Source: a virus (Duplodnaviria > Heunggongvirae > Uroviricota > Caudoviricetes). From it: 28,329 nucleotides of DNA. The notes under the pieces were generated by a model. That model saw nothing but the letters and a program-made list of their open reading frames with translations, made no database searches and was not told where the DNA came from. This document shows positions 2,771-28,329 of the stretch, piece after piece (position 1 is the first letter of the stretch; every line of letters begins with the position of its first letter). A program made the position numbers and the translations under genes. Location of the stretch: IMG/VR virus record IMGVR_UViG_2778261175_000004; one strand, given 5' to 3'.

Positions 2771-3674
2771 TCGCCCTCCTGAGAGACGGGATTTACGTGC
2801 ATCCAGTGCATCACGCATAACGGTGATCGCATCGGTGCTGTTGACAAGTTCATCAGCCAGTCCGGCATCAATGGCCTCCTGACCGCTGTACACTGCAGCC
2901 TCGGTATCCAGCACAGCCTGCACGGACAGGCCGGTATATGCCGACACCTTCTGCGCAAACATCCGGCGGGTTGCATCCATCCGGGACTGCAGTGTCTCCC
3001 GGACGTCATCCGGAAGATGGCTGTAGGGGTTGCCATCCACCTTATGGCTGCCGCTGTAAATCAGCGTGATTTCCACGCCCTGTTTCTCCAGCGCAGCACC
3101 GTAATTACTGTGAGCCATCATGACGCCGATGGAGCCTGTCCGGGCGGTCTGCGTGACCAGACGCCGGGAGGCGGCGCTGGCAAGCAGCTGACCTGCACTG
3201 CAGTTTATGTCGTTGGCCAGCGCCCATACCGGTTTTATGTCTCGCACACGGGCGATGATGTCAGCACAGTCAAATGCTCCCGCCACCATCCCGCCTGGCG
3301 TATCCATATCGAGCAGAATGCCGTCCACCATCGGATCGCTGGCAGCCTGTTGCAGACGGGCGATAATGCCGTTGTAACCGGTCATTCCCGAATACGGCTG
3401 CAGCGCCCGTGTCCGGCTGACCAGCGTACCGGACACCGGCAGCACGGCGATGCCGTTCATGACCTGATAACTGCGGGCCTGTCGTGGTCCGTCATCATCA
3501 CCGGATAACGCCAGCGCCGCGGGTGCCTCTCCGGCAGTCAGGCTGTCGCCGGACACCGCATCCGTCAGGCGACTGATCCCAAGCTGGCCTGCAAGCGCAC
3601 AAAAGAAAACCCGCGCATAGGCGGGTTCAAGCATCAGCGGCTCATTAAAAGCCATGCTGGCAATATGCGGGAGA

Positions 3675-13188: not shown

Positions 13189-13566
13189 TTATTTCGAACA
13201 ATCAGCATCCATCTCCAATCGGAGATCCAACACCATCAGCATACCCTCCACTACGCCCTCAGCTTTCTGGAGCATCCTGCCAACCCAACAATCAGATCGC
13301 CCATGCTTACGTGCAAGCGCCATAAAAGTCATGCCGCCGACATAATAGTCCACCAATAAATCATGCAAATCGCTGTTGTTCTTTTTCAGACGGGCCATGC
13401 ACCCGCAAATGATCATCGCGTCATCGTCACAACATTGCGGGCGAGATTTTACTTTTGAAGGAATTAATCCCTTAAAACCGGCGGCAATGGACGACCAGGT
13501 CACATCTTCATGATTATTAGCCGCCCACGCTCCCCAACGCTCAAGAACCATCTGAATATCACGCAT
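13189..13566 (-). CDS. Q: Late-gene antiterminator Q (QuuD-like)
   Basis: From the Met at 13566: [60 protein letters not shown]...; Cys-rich Zn motif; matches recalled DLP12 QuuD over most of its length. Confidence 0.8.
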
Positions 13567-13648
13567 CAACTTACTCCACAAAACTCAGACCAGAACGCCA
13601 ATTACAAGCAAAAATCAACAAAACAGTATTAGTTGATTGTTATCTCTG

Positions 13649-17094: not shown

Positions 17095-18621
17095 TTAGAA
17101 ATAAATCTCACCATCAACCATATATTTGAGAGCACTTATCGCCTGCTGGGCGGATATTACTTTCATTAAAGGATAGTGTTTAAAAACAATGCCATTCATA
17201 AAATAAATATCACAGGTTTTATTATCCGTATTAATTATGATTTTTTCGAATGTTTTATAGGCAAGTGTACGGCATAACTCTCGTCCATTTTTACTGGTTA
17301 AGTCAATAGCATAAAAATCACTGAATGAATTTACACCTTTACTCTTCAAAGTTTTCAATGATACCGAAGCCCTTCGTAATTCCTTATCTAATAGTCTTAT
17401 TTTCTCTGCTATAGCGGTAACTTCAGGCGCGACAGACAATGCAACGATTAAATTATTAATTTTCATCTGAAGCTCAATAATTTTTAACTCTAAAGTTTCA
17501 TTAGCATCTTTCTTGTTTTCAACTGGTTGAATTTTGCTACAATTAAAAAGCAATTCATTAATGATATTATAATCAACCAAATCTCTTTTTATTGATGGCC
17601 TGTCACATCGATGTAATCTTCTCATCGGACAAACATAATAGCCATGCAAACTTCCAGATACCGCATGAACAATCATGGTATTACCACAAGCCTCACACTT
17701 CATAACTGTTCGAAGTAGATTTATTAGCATAGGATTCTTGCTACTATTGCTAATACCAAAAGGTGCCAACCGAATTTCCTGTACAGCGTAAAACAAATCA
17801 TCTGATATGACTCTGGGATAATAGCCAGCGATTTCACTTATCCCTTTCCCTCTTGCACGATATGAAGGTACGCATATACCTATCAGAGCTTTATTCGCTA
17901 ATAATTTTTCAATTACAGAAGGTCCCCATGCACTTTCTTTTCCTGAGAAATTCTTTACAGCATGATCATTTAAATACTTGGCTATTGCATTCAATGAGCG
18001 CCTTTCCATCCTGAGTTTAAAAATTAGCTCAATAGTTTTCACCCTGTCGGGGTCTGGAACAAAAGCCGTTCTTTTGTCATCTAAGGAGAGCCATCTCGGA
18101 CAAGACGCCGTCATAATCGTACCTGATTCCAGTGCATCCTGCCGTTTTTTCTTCCATGATAATTTAACCCGACTTGACTTTATCTCGCTTTCTTCATTTG
18201 CCCTTTGTGCTATAAGTATGGCTTTTATTAATGAATATGGCTCATTCAAAGAGTCAATATTATAGACTGTATTGTCGCAAAGAGTTATAACATCAATACC
18301 GTGATTCAAAATCAATTTCAGACGTTCAATCGCTTCACCGACTTTTTCTCTTGAAAGTCTGTCCAGACTTTCAACTAACAATGTAGTTCCTGGCAATATA
18401 TAACCATGCTCTATAGCATCTAAAAATTCCGAAAAAGCTCCTGATTGTGCATGCTTTCCTTTGAATGCACTTAATCCTAAATCTTCATATGTTATGGTAT
18501 CAAGATAATAATCACTATTTACCTTTAACCATTCAGCAATAAGTCTTCTCTGTCGGTTTAATGAGTCACCAGACATCTGACCTGGTGATGAAAATCGCAT
18601 ATATGCTATGGCTTTTTTCAT
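17095..18621 (-). CDS. ybcK: Large serine recombinase (resolvase/invertase-type N-terminal catalytic domain plus large C-terminal domain), YbcK-like
   Basis: 508 aa. N-terminus MKKAIAYMRFSSPGQMSGDSLNRQRR... has the serine-recombinase catalytic motif (Y-x-R-x-S-S). C-terminal Cys cluster (CEACGNTMIVH...YYVCPMRRLHRC) is typical of large serine recombinases. Confidence 0.85.
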   Translation of the reverse strand: MKKAIAYMRFSSPGQMSGDSLNRQRRLIAEWLKVNSDYYLDTITYEDLGLSAFKGKHAQSGAFSEFLDAIEHGYILPGTTLLVESLDRLSREKVGEAIERLKLILNHGIDVITLCDNTVYNIDSLNEPYSLIKAILIAQRANEESEIKSSRVKLSWKKKRQDALESGTIMTASCPRWLSLDDKRTAFVPDPDRVKTIELIFKLRMERRSLNAIAKYLNDHAVKNFSGKESAWGPSVIEKLLANKALIGICVPSYRARGKGISEIAGYYPRVISDDLFYAVQEIRLAPFGISNSSKNPMLINLLRTVMKCEACGNTMIVHAVSGSLHGYYVCPMRRLHRCDRPSIKRDLVDYNIINELLFNCSKIQPVENKKDANETLELKIIELQMKINNLIVALSVAPEVTAIAEKIRLLDKELRRASVSLKTLKSKGVNSFSDFYAIDLTSKNGRELCRTLAYKTFEKIIINTDNKTCDIYFMNGIVFKHYPLMKVISAQQAISALKYMVDGEIYF

Positions 18622-18800
18622 GGTGACACCTGCTAACGTATGCTTTTATAAACCTTAGTGGTGGGATATAATTTTTGTTTAATTTTTATTTAAAAAGACA
18701 ATTAAGGTCACATTATCTTGAATATACAACAATAATCGTATTGCAATTTTCTTACGCCATAATCTTGAAAGCACAAAAGAATACATAAAAAATAAAGACA

Positions 18801-18845
18801 TTAACAAAAAGCATAAAACGAGGCTCATATAAATATAAGAGCCTC
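18801..18845 (-). terminator. Putative terminator downstream of emrE
   Basis: Stem GAGGCTC / GAGCCTC (18820-18826 / 18839-18845) with a 12-nt AT loop, followed on the minus strand by GTTTTATGCTTTTTG. The long loop makes this only moderately convincing. Confidence 0.35.
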
Positions 18846-18875
18846 CATATTTTAGTCGTTTAGAAACAAATTATT

Positions 18876-19211
18876 TTAATGTGGTGTGCTTCGTGACAAT
18901 AAATTAATAACCAACACACCGGCACAAATCAACATCATGCCTATAATAGCTGGCAGGTCCAGCCGTTGGTCGAAAAGTCCCCATGACAGTAAGCTAATCA
19001 GGACAATACCGACTCCTGACCAGATAGCATAAGCAATCCCTGTAGGAATATAAGCCAGCGTCTGAGCTAATAACCAGAATGATGCACAATAACAAATAAT
19101 TGTACCAACAGATGGCCATAACCGTGTAAAACCTTCTGAAAACTTCATTAAGGTTGTACCAATGACCTCTGCAAGTATTGCACCACCAAGATAAATATAA
19201 GGGTTCATAGC
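18876..19211 (-). CDS. emrE: Small multidrug resistance efflux transporter EmrE
   Basis: From the internal Met: MNPYIYLGGAILAEVIGTTLMKFSEGFTRLWPSVGTIICYCASFWLLAQTLAYIPTGIAYAIWSGVGIVLISLLSWG..., 110 aa; matches recalled E. coli EmrE. Confidence 0.95.
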   Translation of the reverse strand, partial: AMNPYIYLGGAILAEVIGTTLMKFSEGFTRLWPSVGTIICYCASFWLLAQTLAYIPTGIAYAIWSGVGIVLISLLSWGLFDQRLDLPAIIGMMLICAGVLVINLLSRSTPH

Positions 19212-19275
19212 ATATTCTTTCCTGTTCAAACTGGAGAGAATTGTACTACAGTTTGAACTCAACTCACCTGTTTCA

Positions 19276-19578
19276 TCATTGTGTACCCATTGATGTTCTT
19301 TTATATACCCTCAATACCCGTTTCATCGCGGCACTCTGGCGACACTCCTTAAAAATCAGATTCGTGCTCACCTTTCCTTCCCGTTCTTCTCTGGTAGCGA
19401 ACCGGTAATACACCGTTCGCCAGACCTTACCATCAACGACCAGGATTCCTGCCCGCGCCATTTTAGCCGCAGCCTGATTTATGCTGGTTACGGTTGCGCC
19501 TGTTACCGCGGCAACGTCCTGTGCACAGAAGCTCTTATGCGTCCCCAGGTAATGAATAATTGCCTCTTTGCCCGTCAT
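19276..19578 (-). CDS. ren: Ren protein (Rex exclusion escape), lambda-like
   Basis: 100 aa, MTGKEAIIHYLGTHKSFCAQDVAAVTGATVTSINQAAAKMARAGILVVDGKVWRTVYYRFATREEREGK...; matches recalled lambda Ren. Confidence 0.85.
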   Translation of the reverse strand: MTGKEAIIHYLGTHKSFCAQDVAAVTGATVTSINQAAAKMARAGILVVDGKVWRTVYYRFATREEREGKVSTNLIFKECRQSAAMKRVLRVYKRTSMGTQ

Positions 19579-20276
19579 ACACTTGCTCCTTTCAGTCCGA
19601 ACTTAGCTTTAATTTCTGCGATCTTCGCCAGAGCCTGTGCACGATTTAGAGGTCTACCGCCCATAACAGGAAGTTGTTTTACTGGTTCAGGTATCGTCTC
19701 ACCACGGTTAATTCGCGCTGTCATACAGGTCAGTTCATCGGCAGCCTTGCGCCGTAATTCCGCGTCAGTCAGCGCATTGGCCCGCATGTTCTGGTACAAG
19801 TTGGTAACCAACCAGTAATGCGCGTTCGATTTCCACGGATAAGACTCTGCATCCGGATACAGGCCACGCTTCCGGCAATACTCGTAAACCATATCAACCA
19901 GCTCGCTGACGTTTGGCAGCCCGGCGTTAACAGATGCTTCTTCCCGGCACCAGGCGACAAACTGCCCGGGTGATGGCAGGAATGGTCGATTCTGCCGACG
20001 GGCTACGCGCATTCCAGCGTTAACCTGTTCCATTGTGGTGATCCCGTTTTCCCGGAAAGCCAGAACCCACTGGCGGCGGATTTCGTTCAGTTCATTCTGG
20101 TCACGGTTAGCCAGGCTCGCCGGGAAAGTTGCCAGTAACTGGCTGAACACACCGTTGATGATCTGCGCTACCTGCTGTACCTGTGGCTTTTCGTCGTACT
20201 GTTCCGGCATGTTGTTGGCGATCCGGCGCATCTGCTCACAGTCAAAGTTAACCATCTGTGCGGCGATGTTTTTCAT
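19575..20276 (-). CDS. P: Replication protein P (DnaB helicase loader)
   Basis: 233 aa, MKNIAAQMVNFDCEQMRRIANNMPEQYDEKPQVQQVAQIINGVFSQLLATF...KFGLKGASV; near-identical to recalled lambda gpP. Confidence 0.95.
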   Translation of the reverse strand: MKNIAAQMVNFDCEQMRRIANNMPEQYDEKPQVQQVAQIINGVFSQLLATFPASLANRDQNELNEIRRQWVLAFRENGITTMEQVNAGMRVARRQNRPFLPSPGQFVAWCREEASVNAGLPNVSELVDMVYEYCRKRGLYPDAESYPWKSNAHYWLVTNLYQNMRANALTDAELRRKAADELTCMTARINRGETIPEPVKQLPVMGGRPLNRAQALAKIAEIKAKFGLKGASV

Positions 20277-21202
20277 AGCTCCACCCCGTAAATCCAGTCA
20301 GTGTTCGTCAGGTCGAGTTTTGGTTTGCCGGCTGTCACGCCAGCCTGTTGCTTGTTTCGGTTGATTTCGAGCTGGGTCCACTTGTCGCGGAGTTTGGCCG
20401 GACTTAGCACGTTACCGGACCAGAAGTTGTCCTGGCATGCCCAGCGGAACAGCACGCACATGTCGCGGTGGTTACGTCCGTCACGTTCACGCATCAGGCG
20501 GATATCGTTAGCCCACCCTGCAAAATTCGGTTTTCTGGCTGATGGCGCGATGGTCTTCACCATGTCAAACATCCACTCTGCGGCGGTCAGGTCTTCTGCT
20601 GTCCCCCACTTGCTGCCGCTCTGAATTGCAGCATCCGGTTTCACCACAGGAAGATCGTTTTCTGGTTGGTCAGAGGATTCGCCAGAATTCTCGGACGAAA
20701 AAGGTTTTATATTGTCTTTTGTTAGTTTGTCTTTTGTGTTTACCTGATTCGGGTAAACGCCTTTACCTGATTTGGGTAAACTTTTTTTACCTGATTCAGG
20801 TAAATTTACCTCTTTCAGGTAAACTTTATTTTTCTTACCTGATTCGGGTAATGTTGACCATTCACTGACCACATTATTAATGCCGGTATTCCGCCCGCTC
20901 TGAATAAAAATCCCACGCTTTACCAGAACACTTTTTGCAGCAGAACACTTGTGCGGCAATATCCCGGTTAATTCGGAAAGTTGCTCGTTGCTAACCCAAT
21001 CCAGTTTTTTATTAAAGCCATATGTTTTGCGCATGACAGCCAGAAAGACCAGAAGCTGGTGCTGTGTTAATCCGGCCAGCATCACAGCTTCCAGCAACTC
21101 ATTTGCAATGCGCGTATAACCATCATCGAGATCTGCCACGCGCGGCTCCTTTTGTGCCGCATCCGGCACTGGAAAATTGAATATCTCAGCAGTGTTTGCC
21201 AT
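20273..21202 (-). CDS. O: Replication initiator O: divergent N-terminal iteron-binding domain, lambda-like C-terminal P-interaction domain
   Basis: From the Met at 21202 (GGGAGG ribosome-binding site): MANTAEIFNFPVPDAAQKEPRVADLDDGYTRIANELLEA...; the C-terminal 110 aa (...GWANDIRLMRERDGRNHRDMCVLFRWACQDNFWSGNVLSPAKLRDKWTQLEINRNK...DWIYGVEL) matches recalled lambda O. An upstream ATG at 21292 overlapping the ydaT-like stop could add 30 aa. Confidence 0.85.
   Translation of the reverse strand: MANTAEIFNFPVPDAAQKEPRVADLDDGYTRIANELLEAVMLAGLTQHQLLVFLAVMRKTYGFNKKLDWVSNEQLSELTGILPHKCSAAKSVLVKRGIFIQSGRNTGINNVVSEWSTLPESGKKNKVYLKEVNLPESGKKSLPKSGKGVYPNQVNTKDKLTKDNIKPFSSENSGESSDQPENDLPVVKPDAAIQSGSKWGTAEDLTAAEWMFDMVKTIAPSARKPNFAGWANDIRLMRERDGRNHRDMCVLFRWACQDNFWSGNVLSPAKLRDKWTQLEINRNKQQAGVTAGKPKLDLTNTDWIYGVEL
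20740..20853. repeat. ori: Replication origin iterons: five direct repeats of about 19 bp (TTACCTGATTCGGGTAAAC consensus) inside the O gene, next to an AT-rich segment (about 20690-20739)
   Basis: Repeats at 20740-20758, 20763-20781, 20787-20805, 20806-20824 and 20835-20853, each with internal dyad TTACC...GGTAA. Position and AT-rich neighbour parallel the lambda ori embedded in O. Confidence 0.8.
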
Positions 21203-21288
21203 AATTCCTCCCGCAATGAGTGTGTTACGATTTGCACCTGAAAGTCGGTTCTGTTCCCGCAGACCGACTTTCGCCATTTTTGAACCTG

Positions 21289-21828
21289 TCATATTGCCCC
21301 CAGCATGGTGGTGACCATCGCCATCAATGGACCAGCCAGATCCGGGTCCACTCGAAACATCGACACAATGCCTTCACTCATCTCCTTCAGTTTCTGGTGG
21401 CGTGGTGCGTTGAGAATGACCGCCTGCTTTGCCTCACTGAGTTCCTTTTCCATTTCAGCCAGCCGAGCCATGAAGCTATCCTGCTCAACCAGGTGGCCGC
21501 GATATTCCAGCGGTAGTACCGCCAGAATTGCCGGGGTCAGTTCACGCACGTTATTTCGGTATTTTTCAGAATCGAATTTGTTATCGAGGAAGCGGAACAG
21601 CTTCTGGCGTGCACGACTGACATCATCAGGAAAATCGATGGTGCCGCCGCCCTGTGCTCGATACTCATTCACAATGAGTGCGGCAACTACATCCTGATTA
21701 TCTTCAGCAGACCAAGCGCGGACGGCATCACGGATTTTTTCGTGGCCTGGCACCTGTTTTGTTTGAGAACGATTTATCACCGCAGTCGGGCTAAATCCGC
21801 TAGTCTGTTGGTATGTAAGTGGTTGCAT
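21289..21828 (-). CDS. YdaT-family protein at the cII position (CII functional-equivalent family of Rac / CP-933P type prophages)
   Basis: 179 aa; segments ...EYRAQGGG... and ...TPAILAVLPLEYRGHL... resemble my recollection of YdaT. Sits between the cro-like gene and O. AGGAG ribosome-binding site. Family assignment is from memory and moderately uncertain. Confidence 0.55.
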   Translation of the reverse strand: MQPLTYQQTSGFSPTAVINRSQTKQVPGHEKIRDAVRAWSAEDNQDVVAALIVNEYRAQGGGTIDFPDDVSRARQKLFRFLDNKFDSEKYRNNVRELTPAILAVLPLEYRGHLVEQDSFMARLAEMEKELSEAKQAVILNAPRHQKLKEMSEGIVSMFRVDPDLAGPLMAMVTTMLGAI

Positions 21829-21897
21829 AATTGACTCCTTTAGTTTGAATTGACTGTTAAGTTGATTGCTTATTGTTAAAGAGCGTGAAATGGAAAT

Positions 21898-22128
21898 TTA
21901 AGCTGCGTTCTTTTCGGTGTGTGGAAACAACTTCGGAAGATCCGGGCGAATCTGGTATGCCTTCACTACTCCACCAGTAGCCGTAACAATGCTGCCGACA
22001 TGTTCAGGGGATACCTTTGCTTTGTTGTGAAGCCACTTATAGACGGCCTGCTGTGAAACTTCGCAAGCAGCGCCCAGTTTCTTTTGTGAACCAACGATAT
22101 TGATCGCTGTTTTGATAGCTGGGTTCAT
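21898..22128 (-). CDS. cro: Cro-like helix-turn-helix repressor (YdaS / Cro family), first gene of the rightward early operon
   Basis: 76 aa, MNPAIKTAINIVGSQKKLGAACEVSQQAVYKWLHNKAKVSPEHV...; helix-turn-helix motif; divergent from cI across an operator-rich intergenic region; GGAGG ribosome-binding site. Confidence 0.7.
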   Translation of the reverse strand: MNPAIKTAINIVGSQKKLGAACEVSQQAVYKWLHNKAKVSPEHVGSIVTATGGVVKAYQIRPDLPKLFPHTEKNAA

Positions 22129-22232
22129 AACAACCTCCGTGGTTAATTTGAATCAAGATTAAAACCATGGTTGTTTTTAGTCAACAACCATTTTCGTTTG
22201 ATGGAATAAAACCTTGGTTGTACATTTGGACT
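22129..22232. promoter_or_regulatory. Right operator/promoter region (OR with PR and PRM): three operator-like sites spaced about 23 bp apart
   Basis: 17-mers AAAACCATGGTTGTTTT (22161-22177) and AAAACCTTGGTTGTACA (22208-22224) plus an intermediate CAACAACCATTTTCGTTTG-type site. Minus-strand TTGACT (-35) at 22184..22179 reads toward cro. Plus-strand TACATT sits just upstream of the cI ATG, consistent with a leaderless PRM transcript. Confidence 0.5.
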
Positions 22233-22922
22233 ATGAAAACAACACTCTCAGAAAGACTTAAAGAAGCCAGATTAGCGCGAGGCCTTACACAAAAGGCGCT
22301 TGGGGATTTGGTCGGGGTTAGCCAAGCTGCTATTCAGAAAATCGAAACAGGGAAAGCTAATCAAACAACTAAAATCGTGGAGATCGCGAACGCTTTGGGT
22401 GTGCGCGCAGAATGGTTATCTTCTGGCGTTGGAAATATGTCAGACAGTACAGTGCAACCAATACAATCAACTGTCAGCCATTCCAAATACTTCAAGATTG
22501 ACGTTCTTGATATAGAAGTCAGTGCTGGGCCGGGAGTCATCAACCGTGAGTTTGTAGAAGTTCTACGCTCGGTTGAGTACTCGTTTGACGATGCTCGTCA
22601 TATGTTCGATGGTAGGAAGGCGGAAAATATCCGCATCATTAACGTGCGTGGTGACAGCATGTCAGGAACGATCGAACCAGGTGATCTGCTGTTCGTTGAT
22701 ATCACAGTTAAATCTTTCGACGGTGATGGTATCTATGCGTTTCTGTACGACGACACAGCCCATGTAAAGCGCCTGCAAATGATGAAGGATAAGCTGCTGG
22801 TCATCTCTGATAACAAAAGCTACTCACCGTGGGACCCGATCGAGAAAGACGAGATGAACCGGGTGTTCATCTTCGGTAAGGTTATTGGGAGCATGCCGCA
22901 GACATATAGGAAGCATGGGTAG
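22233..22922 (+). CDS. cI: CI-type prophage repressor (N-terminal helix-turn-helix, C-terminal LexA/S24 self-cleaving peptidase domain)
   Basis: From the Met at 22233: MKTTLSERLKEARLARGLTQKALGDLVGVSQAAIQKIETGK... (helix-turn-helix), then ...RGDSMSGTIEPGDLLFVD...VKRL... (S24 Ser/Lys dyad context), 229 aa. The track ORF begins 22 codons upstream inside the operators. Confidence 0.85.
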   Translation: MKTTLSERLKEARLARGLTQKALGDLVGVSQAAIQKIETGKANQTTKIVEIANALGVRAEWLSSGVGNMSDSTVQPIQSTVSHSKYFKIDVLDIEVSAGPGVINREFVEVLRSVEYSFDDARHMFDGRKAENIRIINVRGDSMSGTIEPGDLLFVDITVKSFDGDGIYAFLYDDTAHVKRLQMMKDKLLVISDNKSYSPWDPIEKDEMNRVFIFGKVIGSMPQTYRKHG

Positions 22923-23043
22923 TACCAATTAAAAATTATCAACTGGGCATTGTGCTCATTCAGTAAAGAACTAATTCCTATCTTTGCTCTAGGTAGTAAT
23001 ATTAAGCCACCGCAATAATATCTTTACCTAACGGCGTAAGAAT

Positions 23044-23070
23044 CCCGGTCACCGTGCCGGGTTTTCTTTT
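23044..23070 (+). terminator. Rho-independent terminator downstream of cI
   Basis: CCCGG-TCACCGTG-CCGGG followed by TTTTCTTTT (23044-23070). Confidence 0.55.
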
Positions 23071-23195
23071 GCCCTCCCCTCATCACACACACCGTTAAAA
23101 AAACCACCATAACCTCGCTTCAGTTATCGCTATGCGATTCAAGTCACAAAATAAATCCATCCTAAATACAACCAGTTATATCTAAAACAACCAAT

Positions 23196-23241
23196 AAAAC
23201 AACTTTTGTTGTTGACGGTAAAACAACTATAGTTTTAAATA
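23196..23241 (+). promoter_or_regulatory. Left operator/promoter region (OL with PL): two 17-bp operator-like dyads overlapping a -35/-10 pair
   Basis: AAAACAACTTTTGTTGT (23196-23212) and AAAACAACTATAGTTTT (23220-23236) share the AAAAC...GTTTT ends with the OR sites. TTGACG at 23212-23217 and TTAAAT at 23235-23240 are separated by 17 bp and point toward gam/bet/exo. Confidence 0.45.
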
Positions 23242-23433
23242 AGTTCATCGCAACAACACAACGATACGGCAACCACCTGATTCACCGTTGCGATGACCGC
23301 TTAGATCCGCAGTTTGAATTTCAGCAGGCTTCGGGGAGTGCGAGGGGTGAAACGGACGCGTGAACGTCGGTGTGACCAGCTGAAATCAACTCAACATTTC
23401 ATACCTTAGTCGCTTCAACGAGGCGACTTAGTT

Positions 23434-23724
23434 ATGACAACCGGCGGCCATCCACCGCCTGAATACGCGCAGAAGTCTCTATATGTTCAGCAGCCCAGCT
23501 TACGGGCAGGAGTTTTTATGGTTCATCAACATTACGGAACGCAGACCGTTAATCGAGGTGCGGTCATGCCAGGAATGCTGGTCAAACACAAAGATGGTAC
23601 CTGGACTGCATCAGCTAATTTACGCGGACGGCTTTATCTGCATCGCGGCATCGAGCGCACTTATACCCGTGATTTGCTCGTGGAAGTTTTTCTCGACGGA
23701 CGCGGTAACGGCCTGAATCGCTAA
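23434..23724 (+). CDS. Hypothetical early protein, first gene after PL (N/kil/cIII position); more likely 68 aa from the internal ATG at 23518
   Basis: Open frame. Internal Met ([29 protein letters not shown]...) is preceded by AGGAG at 5-nt spacing. The upstream ATG at 23434 has its only Shine-Dalgarno-like GAGG inside a hairpin. No recognisable family. Confidence 0.4.
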
Positions 23725-23799
23725 TCCCCTTTCCTGTTTTCCTAATCAGCCTGGCATTTCGCGGGCGATATTTTCACAGCCATTTTCAGGAGTTCAGCC

Positions 23800-24096
23800 A
23801 TGAACGCTTATTACATTCAGGATCGTCTTGAGGCTCAGAGCTGGGCGCGTCACTACCAGCAGATCGCCCGTGAAGAGAAAGAGGCAGAACTGGCAGACGA
23901 CATGGAAAAAGGCCTGCCCCAGCACCTGTTTGAATCGCTATGCATCGATCATTTGCAACGCCACGGGGCCAGCAAAAAAGCCATTACCCGTGCGTTTGAT
24001 GACGATGTTGGGTTTCAGGAGCGCATGGCAGAACACATCCGGTACATGGTTGAAACCATTGCTCACCACCAGGTTGATATTGATTCAGAGGTATAA
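23800..24096 (+). CDS. gam: Gam, RecBCD inhibitor (short 98-aa form)
   Basis: [60 protein letters not shown]...VDIDSEV; near-identical to recalled lambda Gam; AGGAG ribosome-binding site. Confidence 0.95.
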
Positions 24097-26199: not shown

Positions 26200-26220
26200 A
26201 CATGAAAAGCAAAATCATCA

Positions 26221-26242
26221 GGGAGCTACAGGCTCCTTTTTT
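26221..26242 (+). terminator. Rho-independent terminator after the orf61-like gene
   Basis: GGAGC-TACAG-GCTCC followed by TTTTTT (26222-26242). Confidence 0.5.
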
Positions 26243-26932: not shown

Positions 26933-27163
26933 ATGACAATCAATATTCAGCCGATTCTAATAAACCGCGAGCGTGTTCAGGAGATGCTTGGTGGTATCTC
27001 CAGAACTACTTTTTACCGGAAGCGTAAACAGTGGGAGCAATCAGGGACACCATTCCCTCGGGAAGTGGAAGAAATCCACCCACCGAAAGGCGGCGCCCTC
27101 TTTCGCTACAAGGAAGTTATTCAGTTTTGCAAAGATAAAGGATTGATTTCCGAACACTCTTGA
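26933..27163 (+). CDS. xis: Excisionase / AlpA-family helix-turn-helix protein
   Basis: 76 aa; ...INRERVQEMLGGISRTTFYRKRKQWEQSGTPFP... is the AlpA/Xis-type winged helix-turn-helix signature; adjacent to the integrase; GGAGA ribosome-binding site. Confidence 0.6.
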   Translation: MTINIQPILINRERVQEMLGGISRTTFYRKRKQWEQSGTPFPREVEEIHPPKGGALFRYKEVIQFCKDKGLISEHS

Positions 27164-28329
27164 ATTTTCTTAGCCCATAATTCTGCTGCGTCCTGCTGCT
27201 CGGGGATGTAGTCATACTGGTCATAAACAGCCAGCATCCCCGTGAGCTTATGCCCGAGAATTTTCTCCGAAACATGAGGTGCTACTCCAAGTTCAGCCAT
27301 TTTTGTTTTGCACGTTCTGCGCAGATCGTGCAATGACCAGTGCTCGCCCCCCATAACATCTTCTACCTGTTCTGCAATAGAAATTAGGGTGCTGGCAGAC
27401 ATTGGGCGATTTTCCTGTAACTTAGCCGGAGGAAATACGATTGACAGATCAGGGTATAGATCAAATACCTGCTGCAAATAATCTGCTGCGAGTTTTGAAA
27501 TACCGCGAACAAATCGCTTACGCGTTTTTGAGTTCTCTTTCGGTATAGTCCATTCTCTAGACTTCAGATCAAAATCAGTCTTCTTAGCCAACCGCAATTC
27601 AACACCACGACAACCAGTTAACGCAACAATTCGAATAAACATTTTGTTTTGCCACGACATTTTCGTTTTGTCGATGGCATTCCAGAATGCGCCTATCTCA
27701 ACATCGTTAAGAAAACGTTCGCCATTATTAGGTCTACTGCCGATATCATTAATCTCAAGAAGCATCAGTGCATTTGATGTTATGCGTTTTCTGCGTAACG
27801 CATAGCGGATCACTTGCTTCATCTTCACCAGTACATTTCCCGCCTGTACGGGTGACCCACCTTTTGTTATGCGAATGAATATTTGCTCCCACTCTACAGG
27901 ACTCATTTCATCTGCAATCAGCTTACCGTAATTGTCGGTGATGTGAAGTTTCAGCATCCGCTTCCAGTATTCGTACTTCACCATCTCTTTTACTGAAGGA
28001 GTATCAAACCACTCGTCAACTAGGGTACTGATGCTTGGGGAACTTGATGCAATATCTTTGGCTTTCTTCCTTTGCATGGCTGGGTCTTTACCCTTCTCCA
28101 ACCACCCTTTACACTCTTCCAATGCATCGCGAGCTTCCTTAAGCGACATCTTCCCGTACGTTCCGAGCTTTAACCTGGCGGGTTTTCCATTGAAACGATA
28201 GCGGTATTGAAAGGTGATAAGTCCCTTCGGGCTGATCCTGACAGAAAGTCCGCCTCCGTCAGCTATCTCCTCAGGTCCCTCATATGCTTTTCCGGATATA
28301 CGTCGCAGCTTTGTATCGTTGAGTGCCAT
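27121..28329 (-). CDS. int: Tyrosine integrase (P4-like family with N-terminal arm-binding DUF4102-type domain)
   Basis: 402 aa. MALNDTKLRRISGKAYEGPEEIADGGGLSVRISPKGLITFQYRYRFNGKPARLKLGTY is the classic P4-type integrase N-terminus. C-terminal catalytic region carries ...HDLRRT... and ...LGH...Y. The start codon is the last three bases of the window. Confidence 0.9.
   Translation of the reverse strand: MALNDTKLRRISGKAYEGPEEIADGGGLSVRISPKGLITFQYRYRFNGKPARLKLGTYGKMSLKEARDALEECKGWLEKGKDPAMQRKKAKDIASSSPSISTLVDEWFDTPSVKEMVKYEYWKRMLKLHITDNYGKLIADEMSPVEWEQIFIRITKGGSPVQAGNVLVKMKQVIRYALRRKRITSNALMLLEINDIGSRPNNGERFLNDVEIGAFWNAIDKTKMSWQNKMFIRIVALTGCRGVELRLAKKTDFDLKSREWTIPKENSKTRKRFVRGISKLAADYLQQVFDLYPDLSIVFPPAKLQENRPMSASTLISIAEQVEDVMGGEHWSLHDLRRTCKTKMAELGVAPHVSEKILGHKLTGMLAVYDQYDYIPEQQDAAELWAKKIQECSEINPLSLQN

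Follow-up and report, generated by a model that had tools for sequence, protein, structure and literature searches.

The early-left operon of this E. coli prophage is best read, with a probability that we put at roughly 55%, as a Rac-type, N-independent operon with a conserved cis-regulatory RNA retained in its leader. The RNA in question consists of two adjacent hairpins, HP3 and HP4, in the untranslated leader of kil-gam-bet-exo, and on comparative sequence evidence the pair is a conserved RNA module. It has no Rfam family and carries only the labels 'tL1' or 'terminator' in GenBank. The Rac-type, N-less operon is the ordinary part of the locus, and the less ordinary part is an uncatalogued RNA module that occupies the tL1 position in many lambdoid phages. 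Below, the window denotes the whole stretch of DNA that was analysed (28,329 nt).

The prophage and the limits of its early-left leader

The window is a lambdoid E. coli prophage in an orientation reversed relative to the lambda map, and its kil-gam-bet-exo operon and leader belong to a Rac-immunity-type lambdoid prophage that is very common in E. coli. The + strand carries cI, kil, gam, bet and exo in that order, followed by homologues of orf60a, orf63 and orf61, while the - strand encodes O with iterons, P, ren and the nin region in addition to the cro, cII-like and Q genes listed here:

13189-13581, - strand: Q
21289-21828, - strand: YdaT-family cII-like gene (Pfam/PHROGs)
21898-22128, - strand: YdaS-family cro (Pfam/PHROGs)
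22233-22922, + strand: cI-type repressor gene (HTH and S24 peptidase; Pfam and PHROGs matches; start codon as given by RefSeq for an identical locus)
23044-23070, + strand: intrinsic terminator of the cI (immunity and cargo) transcript, CCCGGTCACCGTGCCGGG then TTTTCTTTTG
23171-23240, + strand: OL operators and PL (-35 TTGACG at 23212-17, 17-nt spacing, -10 TTAAAT at 23235-40; hexamers read from the sequence)
23247-23517, + strand: untranslated 5' leader of kil-gam-bet-exo, about 271 nt, from the predicted +1 to the kil start at 23518
23509-23512, + strand: Shine-Dalgarno GGAG of kil, 5 nt before ATG 23518
23518-23724, + strand: kil, 68 aa, an FtsZ inhibitor of the KilR/phi80-Kil family (phrog_294, E = 1.6e-38; RefSeq/PGAP start)

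Several other features of the prophage were recorded in passing. A 508-aa serine recombinase (17095-18621) and an SMR/QacE-like gene (18876-19262), both in the nin region (- strand, 17095-19262), form an unusual cargo between ren and ninB. The integrase (27121-28329, - strand) is convergent with PL, and a terminator-like hairpin with a T-run (26220-26238, + strand) lies 3' of the orf61-like gene, inside the PL operon.

In the interval from 22923 to 23433 the immunity transcript ends, OL/PL follow, and a longer leader begins, of which the interval covers the first ~190 nt. In the terminator scan, the cI terminator appears as a hairpin at 23044-23061 followed by a T-run, and it is shared by relatives with cargo genes downstream of cI. 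Between this terminator and cI the window has an empty slot (22923-23043), which in relatives holds the GevT/GevA toxin-antitoxin genes (PhiR47_2), a SIR2-family gene (O157:H7) or two unknown genes (Perceval), and a literature search on GevT/GevA returned nothing relevant. The repeated 16-mers of OL, TAAAACAACTTTTGTT and TAAAACAACTATAGTT, match the operators between cI and cro, and the predicted PL start falls near A23247, within a CATCG motif common to the annotated promoters of HK225 and phi80; a consensus promoter scan did not flag PL. The PL -10/operator sequence of Salmonella phage UPF_BP1 (L266), ACAACCATAGTTTTAAAT, resembles that of the window, but putL comes directly after it.

The earlier note had placed the start of the first gene at ATG 23434, which gave a leader of about 190 nt. 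Both RefSeq, where the product is named 'phage encoded cell division inhibitor protein', and homology across genera move the kil start to 23518: orthologues in other genera are 79-87% identical, and in Citrobacter, Kluyvera, Enterobacter and Silvania the homology begins exactly at ATG 23518, with unrelated sequences upstream. In relatives, indels of +1, +5, -1 and -2 nt between 23340 and 23490 break the frame. Because kil starts at 23518 rather than 23434, the leader extends from the predicted +1 near 23247 to 23517, or ~271 nt. As a separate observation, another long hairpin, GUGAGCUUCGCGGUGGUG...CACCACCAGCGAAGUUCAC, is found at 100-190 nt before kil in the leaders of Citrobacter and Kluyvera (L009, L012-L015), which also share the element GUUCCGCCAGCCUGGCGACAAGGGCAAAG.

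The leader was found in 2231 of 5426 complete E. coli genomes, in 2164 of them at an identity of at least 95%, and in 18 phage records (blastn). It sits behind differing immunity regions, and the O157:H7 copy is homologous only from 23281 on. Across 87 distinct IMG/VR and GenBank haplotypes, drawn from loci that were retrieved through a perfect match to a leader 21-mer and are for that reason less diverse near it, leader nucleotide diversity is 0.017-0.035; third-codon-position diversity is 0.076 in kil, 0.054 in gam and 0.088 in bet, and the kil-gam spacer stands at 0.065. The least variable stretch is the 40 nt at 23480-23519 (diversity 0.002), which include the kil Shine-Dalgarno. Judged by these sequence comparisons, the leader, including the HP3/HP4 module, is under purifying selection in the window's lineage, and its low diversity could partly stem from recent spread of one mosaic module.

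HP3 and HP4 as a conserved RNA module

The leader had been described as highly structured on the strength of several dyads, and these are present to within 1 nt: a long-range dyad pairing ATTTCAGCAGG (23318-23328) with CCAGCTGAAAT (23376-23386) through 8 bp, an A.A mismatch and 2 bp; GACG (23355-58) with CGTC (23365-68); and AGTCGC (23408-13) with GCGACT (23423-28). Fold energies do not bear out the general description, as 17 of 200 shuffles were as stable as 23242-23440 (z = -1.51), and the full leader (23247-23535) has a z of -0.46 against its shuffle control. The only exceptional hairpin in the leader is that at 23399-23437 (z = -6.3), whose stability was reached by none of 200 shuffles. 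This hairpin is HP3, and it is followed closely by HP4:

23400-23436, + strand: HP3 (AGUCGCUUC/GAGGCGACU), core 23408-23416 with 23420-23428, outer pairs CAUA/UAUG
23443-23459, + strand: HP4, GGCGG-CCAUCCA-CCGCC, with no U-tract here and nearly invariant in all module copies

Together they form a 60-nt module (23400-23459) that reads CAUACC, HP3, UUAGUUAUGA, a spacer and the GGCGG-CCAUCCA-CCGCC of HP4. The first lead to homologues was a weak match in a prophage of E. coli strain AW1.7, and the module is also found in phi80, HK225, HK639, Salmonella phage S9-5 and Klebsiella KO-TP1, with many further variants added by two more IMG/VR scans. The window carries both hallmarks of the module, namely an HP3 with the invariant CAUA/UAUG base, a UUC...GAG top and a covarying middle, and an HP4 of the form GGCGG-CYAUCCA-CCGCC placed 6-15 nt after HP3. 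A covariance model of the module (R2), which has the window among its training sequences, identifies one copy in the window, at 88.4 bits on the + strand and 26 bits on the - strand, and has no match in Rac, in the searched HK022 segment or in the kil leaders of other genera.

The pattern of substitutions in HP3 is that of a helix maintained as RNA. Seven pairs change on both sides (52 cells; 34 distinct sequences), and the middle six pairs take up to five pair types. The HP3 cells are paired in 95.3% of cases, compared with 86.1% in shuffles (none of 500 as high as observed) and 30-51% with the partners slid; RNAalifold independently predicts the same two helices, HP3 and HP4. Read on the - strand, pairing falls from the 95.3% of the + (PL-sense) strand to 84.8%, the helix being strand-specific because of its G.U pairs. 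The AGTCGC/GCGACT dyad thus held up when checked for conservation, with HP3 pairing kept both within the lineage, where all seven polymorphic paired sites still pair and one break occurs in 67 haplotypes, and across distant phages. Since HP4 is nearly invariant, covariation neither supports nor contradicts it.

The same observations, that HP3 keeps its pairing through seven polymorphic paired sites with a single break in 67 haplotypes and covaries across distant phages, together with a leader diversity 2-4 times below that of neighbouring synonymous sites, make it very unlikely that the leader has no function beyond its promoter and ribosome-binding site, with HP3/HP4 an inert relic of tL1 and the conservation a product of recent spread, even though most leader copies are at least 95% identical and HP4 is without covariation.

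An earlier proposal that this dyad is a translational-control hairpin survives in part. The hairpin is real, strand-specific and covarying; however, the AUG that it buries at 23434-36, along with GAGG at 23420-23, is not the kil start, HP3 lying 80 nt upstream of the true start codon, and its frame is not conserved. The spacer between AUG and HP4 measures 3, 4, 5, 6 or 9 nt, which places HP4 in all three frames, and in one module variant AUU replaces AUG. A conserved upstream-ORF peptide, MTTGGHPPP, considered as a possible polyproline stall, was ruled out on the ground that HP4 falls in all three frames.

Frame also bears on whether the leader is, or recently was, coding, either as an N-terminally extended Kil of 96-139 aa, such as is annotated in Perceval and PhiR47_2, or as an Arg-rich micro-ORF left over from N. 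The micro-ORF, MKRTRERRCDQLKSTQHFIP (23347-23409, + strand; 20 codons from GTG 23347), has an Arg-rich start whose KRTRERR we take to resemble the arginine-rich motifs of N. The frame runs on into kil in 46 of 67 haplotypes (CAG in place of TAG 23407), GTG 23347 is ATG in six haplotypes, and GGGGAG lies 8 nt upstream. Against a coding leader, the window and many haplotypes do have the stop codon, the +1, +5, -1 and -2 nt indels occur in relatives, and the 12, 8 and 9 polymorphic sites at codon positions 1, 2 and 3 show no third-position excess, with 20 nonsynonymous and 9 synonymous changes. Moreover, no Pfam or PHROG match was found, tblastn of the first 31 residues finds nothing outside the lineage, and the module, which here lies within the kil-continuous frame, occurs in all three frames elsewhere. 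We therefore consider coding, present or recent, highly improbable.

Search for antitermination and termination signals in the leader

Upstream of the module, the first ~150 nt of the leader are lineage-specific and hold two candidate structures, listed here with a boxA on the opposite early transcript:

23247-23294, + strand: HP1, 5'-terminal stem AUCGCAAC/GUUGCGAU, lineage-variable (z = -1.4, weak evidence)
23318-23386, + strand: HP2, the long-range dyad, enclosing GACG-CGUGAA-CGUC (z = -1.7)
21873-21885, - strand: consensus rrn-type boxA CGCUCUUUAACAA, 12 nt downstream of the cro stop codon on the PR transcript

The 3' arm of HP1 also pairs with other 5' modules (O157, L095, L353). The HP2 region has a z of -1.72 against its shuffle control, and its core stem tolerates two wobble changes. 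When its conservation was checked, the long-range dyad did not hold as HP3 did: two predicted sub-helices of HP2 are broken in 38-45 of 67 haplotypes with no compensatory changes seen, and the diverged copy L353 breaks one stem pair, again uncompensated, in a lineage where covariation is limited by at least 95% identity and L353 is the sole diverged copy. As a structure, HP2 is unsupported. Searches of phage records by blastn and tblastn found no relatives of HP1-HP2 outside the window's own lineage.

The earlier note was right that N and the rex and sieB genes are missing. No ORF from the cI stop (22922) to 23434 exceeds 36 aa, the length of the one at 23162-23272 (- strand); the next, with a TTG start, has 31 aa (23314-23409, + strand). 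Neither of the two has a family match in Pfam or PHROG, and none of the ORFs tested matched N, rex or sieB families. Family scans across the rest of the PL operon found no N-like ORF. Between 23243 and 23520 there is no boxA within 3 mismatches, and reading the sequence revealed no boxB-type hairpin. The post-cro boxA, the sole exact match to CGCUCUUUAACAA in the window, is present in 47 related loci and occurs in 36 of the 81 window-type loci with enough upstream DNA; the 57 nt before the next gene contain no boxB-like hairpin. It may recruit NusB/NusE, a host-type protection against Rho in an N-less phage.

In a terminator scan, the + strand was free of terminator-like sites from 23062, just past the cI hairpin, to 23666, inside kil, and hence between PL and kil. 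HP3 and HP4 are followed by UAGUUAUGA and UGAAUACG, respectively, and neither combines a GC-rich hairpin with a U-tract. Rfam yielded no match at gathering score in the whole window and only chance-level hits (E >= 1.4) at E <= 10 in 22900-23850.

The suggestion of an RNA of the HK022 put type is not supported. We used a put covariance model (R1) of seven RNAs (HK022 putL and putR, and the putL of HK639, S9-5, CobraSix, phiEt88 and UPF_BP1), which recovers its own members at 47-95 bits and finds nothing at E <= 10 in the leader or after cro. Its best score in the window is at most 10 bits and lies elsewhere, with no hit in 23243-23520, so that by this comparison the leader has no match in sequence or structure to known put RNAs. 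The hallmark of put, a second copy in the PR operon, is missing as well, since neither a repeat search of 19000-22160 nor model R2 detected another leader or module there. The put model, Rfam and the missing PR-operon copy together rule out membership in the put family.

A new cis-acting antiterminator RNA unrelated to put could still be imagined in HP1-HP2 (23247 to ~23395), modifying RNA polymerase after PL and replacing N/nut or put. The segment is strongly conserved in a lineage that has neither N nor put, it occupies the same slot as a put of about equal length in two IMG/VR loci (L270, L349), a terminator-like site lies downstream at 26220-26238, and HP4 is a terminator in sibling phages. 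We nonetheless regard such an element as unlikely, given a fold energy that is unexceptional (z = -1.4 to -1.7), sub-helices that are broken in most haplotypes without compensation, the stem pair broken in L353, the lack of similarity to put and of a PR-operon copy, and the absence of any terminator between HP1-HP2 and kil.

The leader might instead be a Rho-dependent attenuator that silences leaky PL transcription into the toxic kil gene in lysogens. Silencing of Rac kilR by Rho/NusG has been published (PMC5793797), and the window offers 271 nt of untranslated RNA with a G-free 26-nt tract (23383-23408) and C-rich ends (C/G 1.5-1.9). Its overall C/G is only 1.06, however, and falls to 0.57 in the G-rich middle 80 nt; G-free runs of at least 20 nt number 64 in the window and are thus common, which leaves the likeness to a rut site weak; and the leader is not homologous to the Rac kilR leader or to KilS. 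While improbable in our judgement, Rho-dependent attenuation is compatible with an N-independent operon that keeps a conserved RNA in its leader, and would add a mechanism to it.

Proposed role of the leader and comparison with known systems

The position of the module in other phages gives a view of what the window's lineage lacks. In phi80, the module comes directly after the N gene and an intrinsic terminator, and starts the region labelled tL1 in GenBank M11919, where the feature reads 't-L1 regulatory signal terminator'; a literature search did not find a full-text account of phi80 tL1. The module stands directly upstream of kil in HK225, and Salmonella phage S9-5 carries it together with putL and putR. 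In HK639, HP4 is annotated 'terminator' and followed by a U-run, as it also is in some IMG/VR variants, and a putL-like RNA lies upstream. The window resembles phi80 and HK639 in having the module in the PL operon ahead of the kil/recombination block. It differs from phi80, HK225, HK639, S9-5 and KO-TP1 in lacking both the strong intrinsic terminator directly 5' of the module and the N, phi80-type leader or put further upstream.

The comparison covered 167 loci that bear the module and have 1.5 kb or more of DNA upstream. With a window-type leader, 98 of 98 loci were without a T-run terminator before the module, put or a phi80-type leader. A second sample was anchored on HP4 only, and hence unselected for the terminator; here the module is immediately preceded by a T-run in 58 of 63 loci, and put and/or a phi80-type leader lies upstream in 54 of 63. 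Terminator absence tracks the absence of N and put. The exceptions are L270 and L349, in which put adjoins the module with no terminator or gene between, occupying ~150 nt between the CAUCG start and the module, the slot of HP1-HP2 in the window; the terminator can thus be missing from phages that do have an antiterminator.

Two side observations belong to these comparisons. A PL leader of ~280 nt is conserved in phi80 (L139, 650-940), HK225 (L140, 1240-1460) and KO-TP1 (L142), with a different next gene in each phage; it is labelled 'nutL' in M11919, contains the boxA-like UGCUUUUUAACAA and could be a separate RNA element. The prophage sRNAs svsR and HnrS, which surfaced as literature matches, concern other loci.

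We favour the N-independent, Rac-type operon with a conserved RNA in its leader as the reading of the window. The Rac-type alternative had already been raised by the earlier note, and YdaS/YdaT immunity, a KilR-family kil, the missing N and the lack of a terminator between PL and kil all agree with it. Transcription from the predicted PL start near 23247 meets no intrinsic terminator before kil, and would reach kil and the Red genes without a dedicated antiterminator, for which an operon with no terminator before kil should have no need. The terminator-like site at 26220-26238, further along the PL operon, counts against this. The leader is a composite of ~150 lineage-specific nt (HP1, HP2) and the 60-nt conserved module (HP3, HP4). 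In phi80- and put-type phages the module comes right after the tL1 terminator, where the immediate-early genes give way to the kil/recombination block, and in the window's lineage it has been retained although the N/nut or put segment and the terminator are absent. HP3/HP4 would act in cis on the RNA and set expression of the toxic kil block, probably by means other than termination or antitermination. Candidate routes are mRNA processing or stability, or occlusion of the GAGG/AUG buried in HP3. The phi80 tL1 label and the HK639 annotation of HP4 as 'terminator' point to a possible role of the module in pausing or termination.

A stronger version of this proposal, that HP3/HP4 is an undescribed cis-regulatory RNA family gating the kil block and works alongside a lineage-specific 150-nt RNA that replaces nut/N or put, is tentative and on balance doubtful. 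If true, many lambdoid PL operons would have HP3/HP4 as the marker of their transition from immediate-early to delayed-early genes, and in the window's lineage control of early-left expression would rest with RNA and host factors alone.

Early control in lambdoid phages is exemplified by the textbook N/nut system, with HK022 put as the known exception. A prophage type present in ~40% of complete E. coli genomes uses neither, and the comparison above shows how an N-less state can arise, with the terminator gone and the adjacent RNA hairpin module kept. The module may well control access to a toxic FtsZ inhibitor and to the Red recombination genes, and its function bears on the timing of early expression and on the silence of kil in lysogens of N-less prophages.

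Like HK022 and HK639 with their put RNAs, the window is a lambdoid phage that lacks N and has an RNA element shortly after PL. The action of put, which confers terminator read-through, needs the zinc-binding domain of the RNA polymerase beta-prime subunit. Unlike put, the element of the window is a single copy, with none after cro.

The likeness to Rac lies in the YdaS/YdaT-type cro and cII, the KilR-family kil, the lack of N (none is annotated between racR and kilR in Rac) and the presence of a long leader ahead of the kil gene. Published work shows Rho/NusG silencing of Rac kilR (PMC5793797) and an sRNA, KilS, that derives from the kilR 5' UTR (PMC8175672), so that control at the leader of a toxic kil gene has precedent. 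In E. coli K-12 Rac (L263), KilS is annotated at 3406-3503 on the - strand, in the kilR 5' UTR, a position analogous to that of the window's leader. The window departs from Rac in its recombination genes, which are lambda Red (gam-bet-exo) rather than recET, and in a leader that has no homology to the Rac kilR leader or KilS and no terminator that could release a KilS-like sRNA.

In lambda, the PL leader contains nutL and an RNase III-sensitive hairpin that controls translation of N. The leader of the window is similar in exceeding 200 nt and in placing a stable hairpin upstream of the first gene. It differs in having no boxA or boxB, in leading to kil instead of N, and in a hairpin that stands 80 nt before the start codon.
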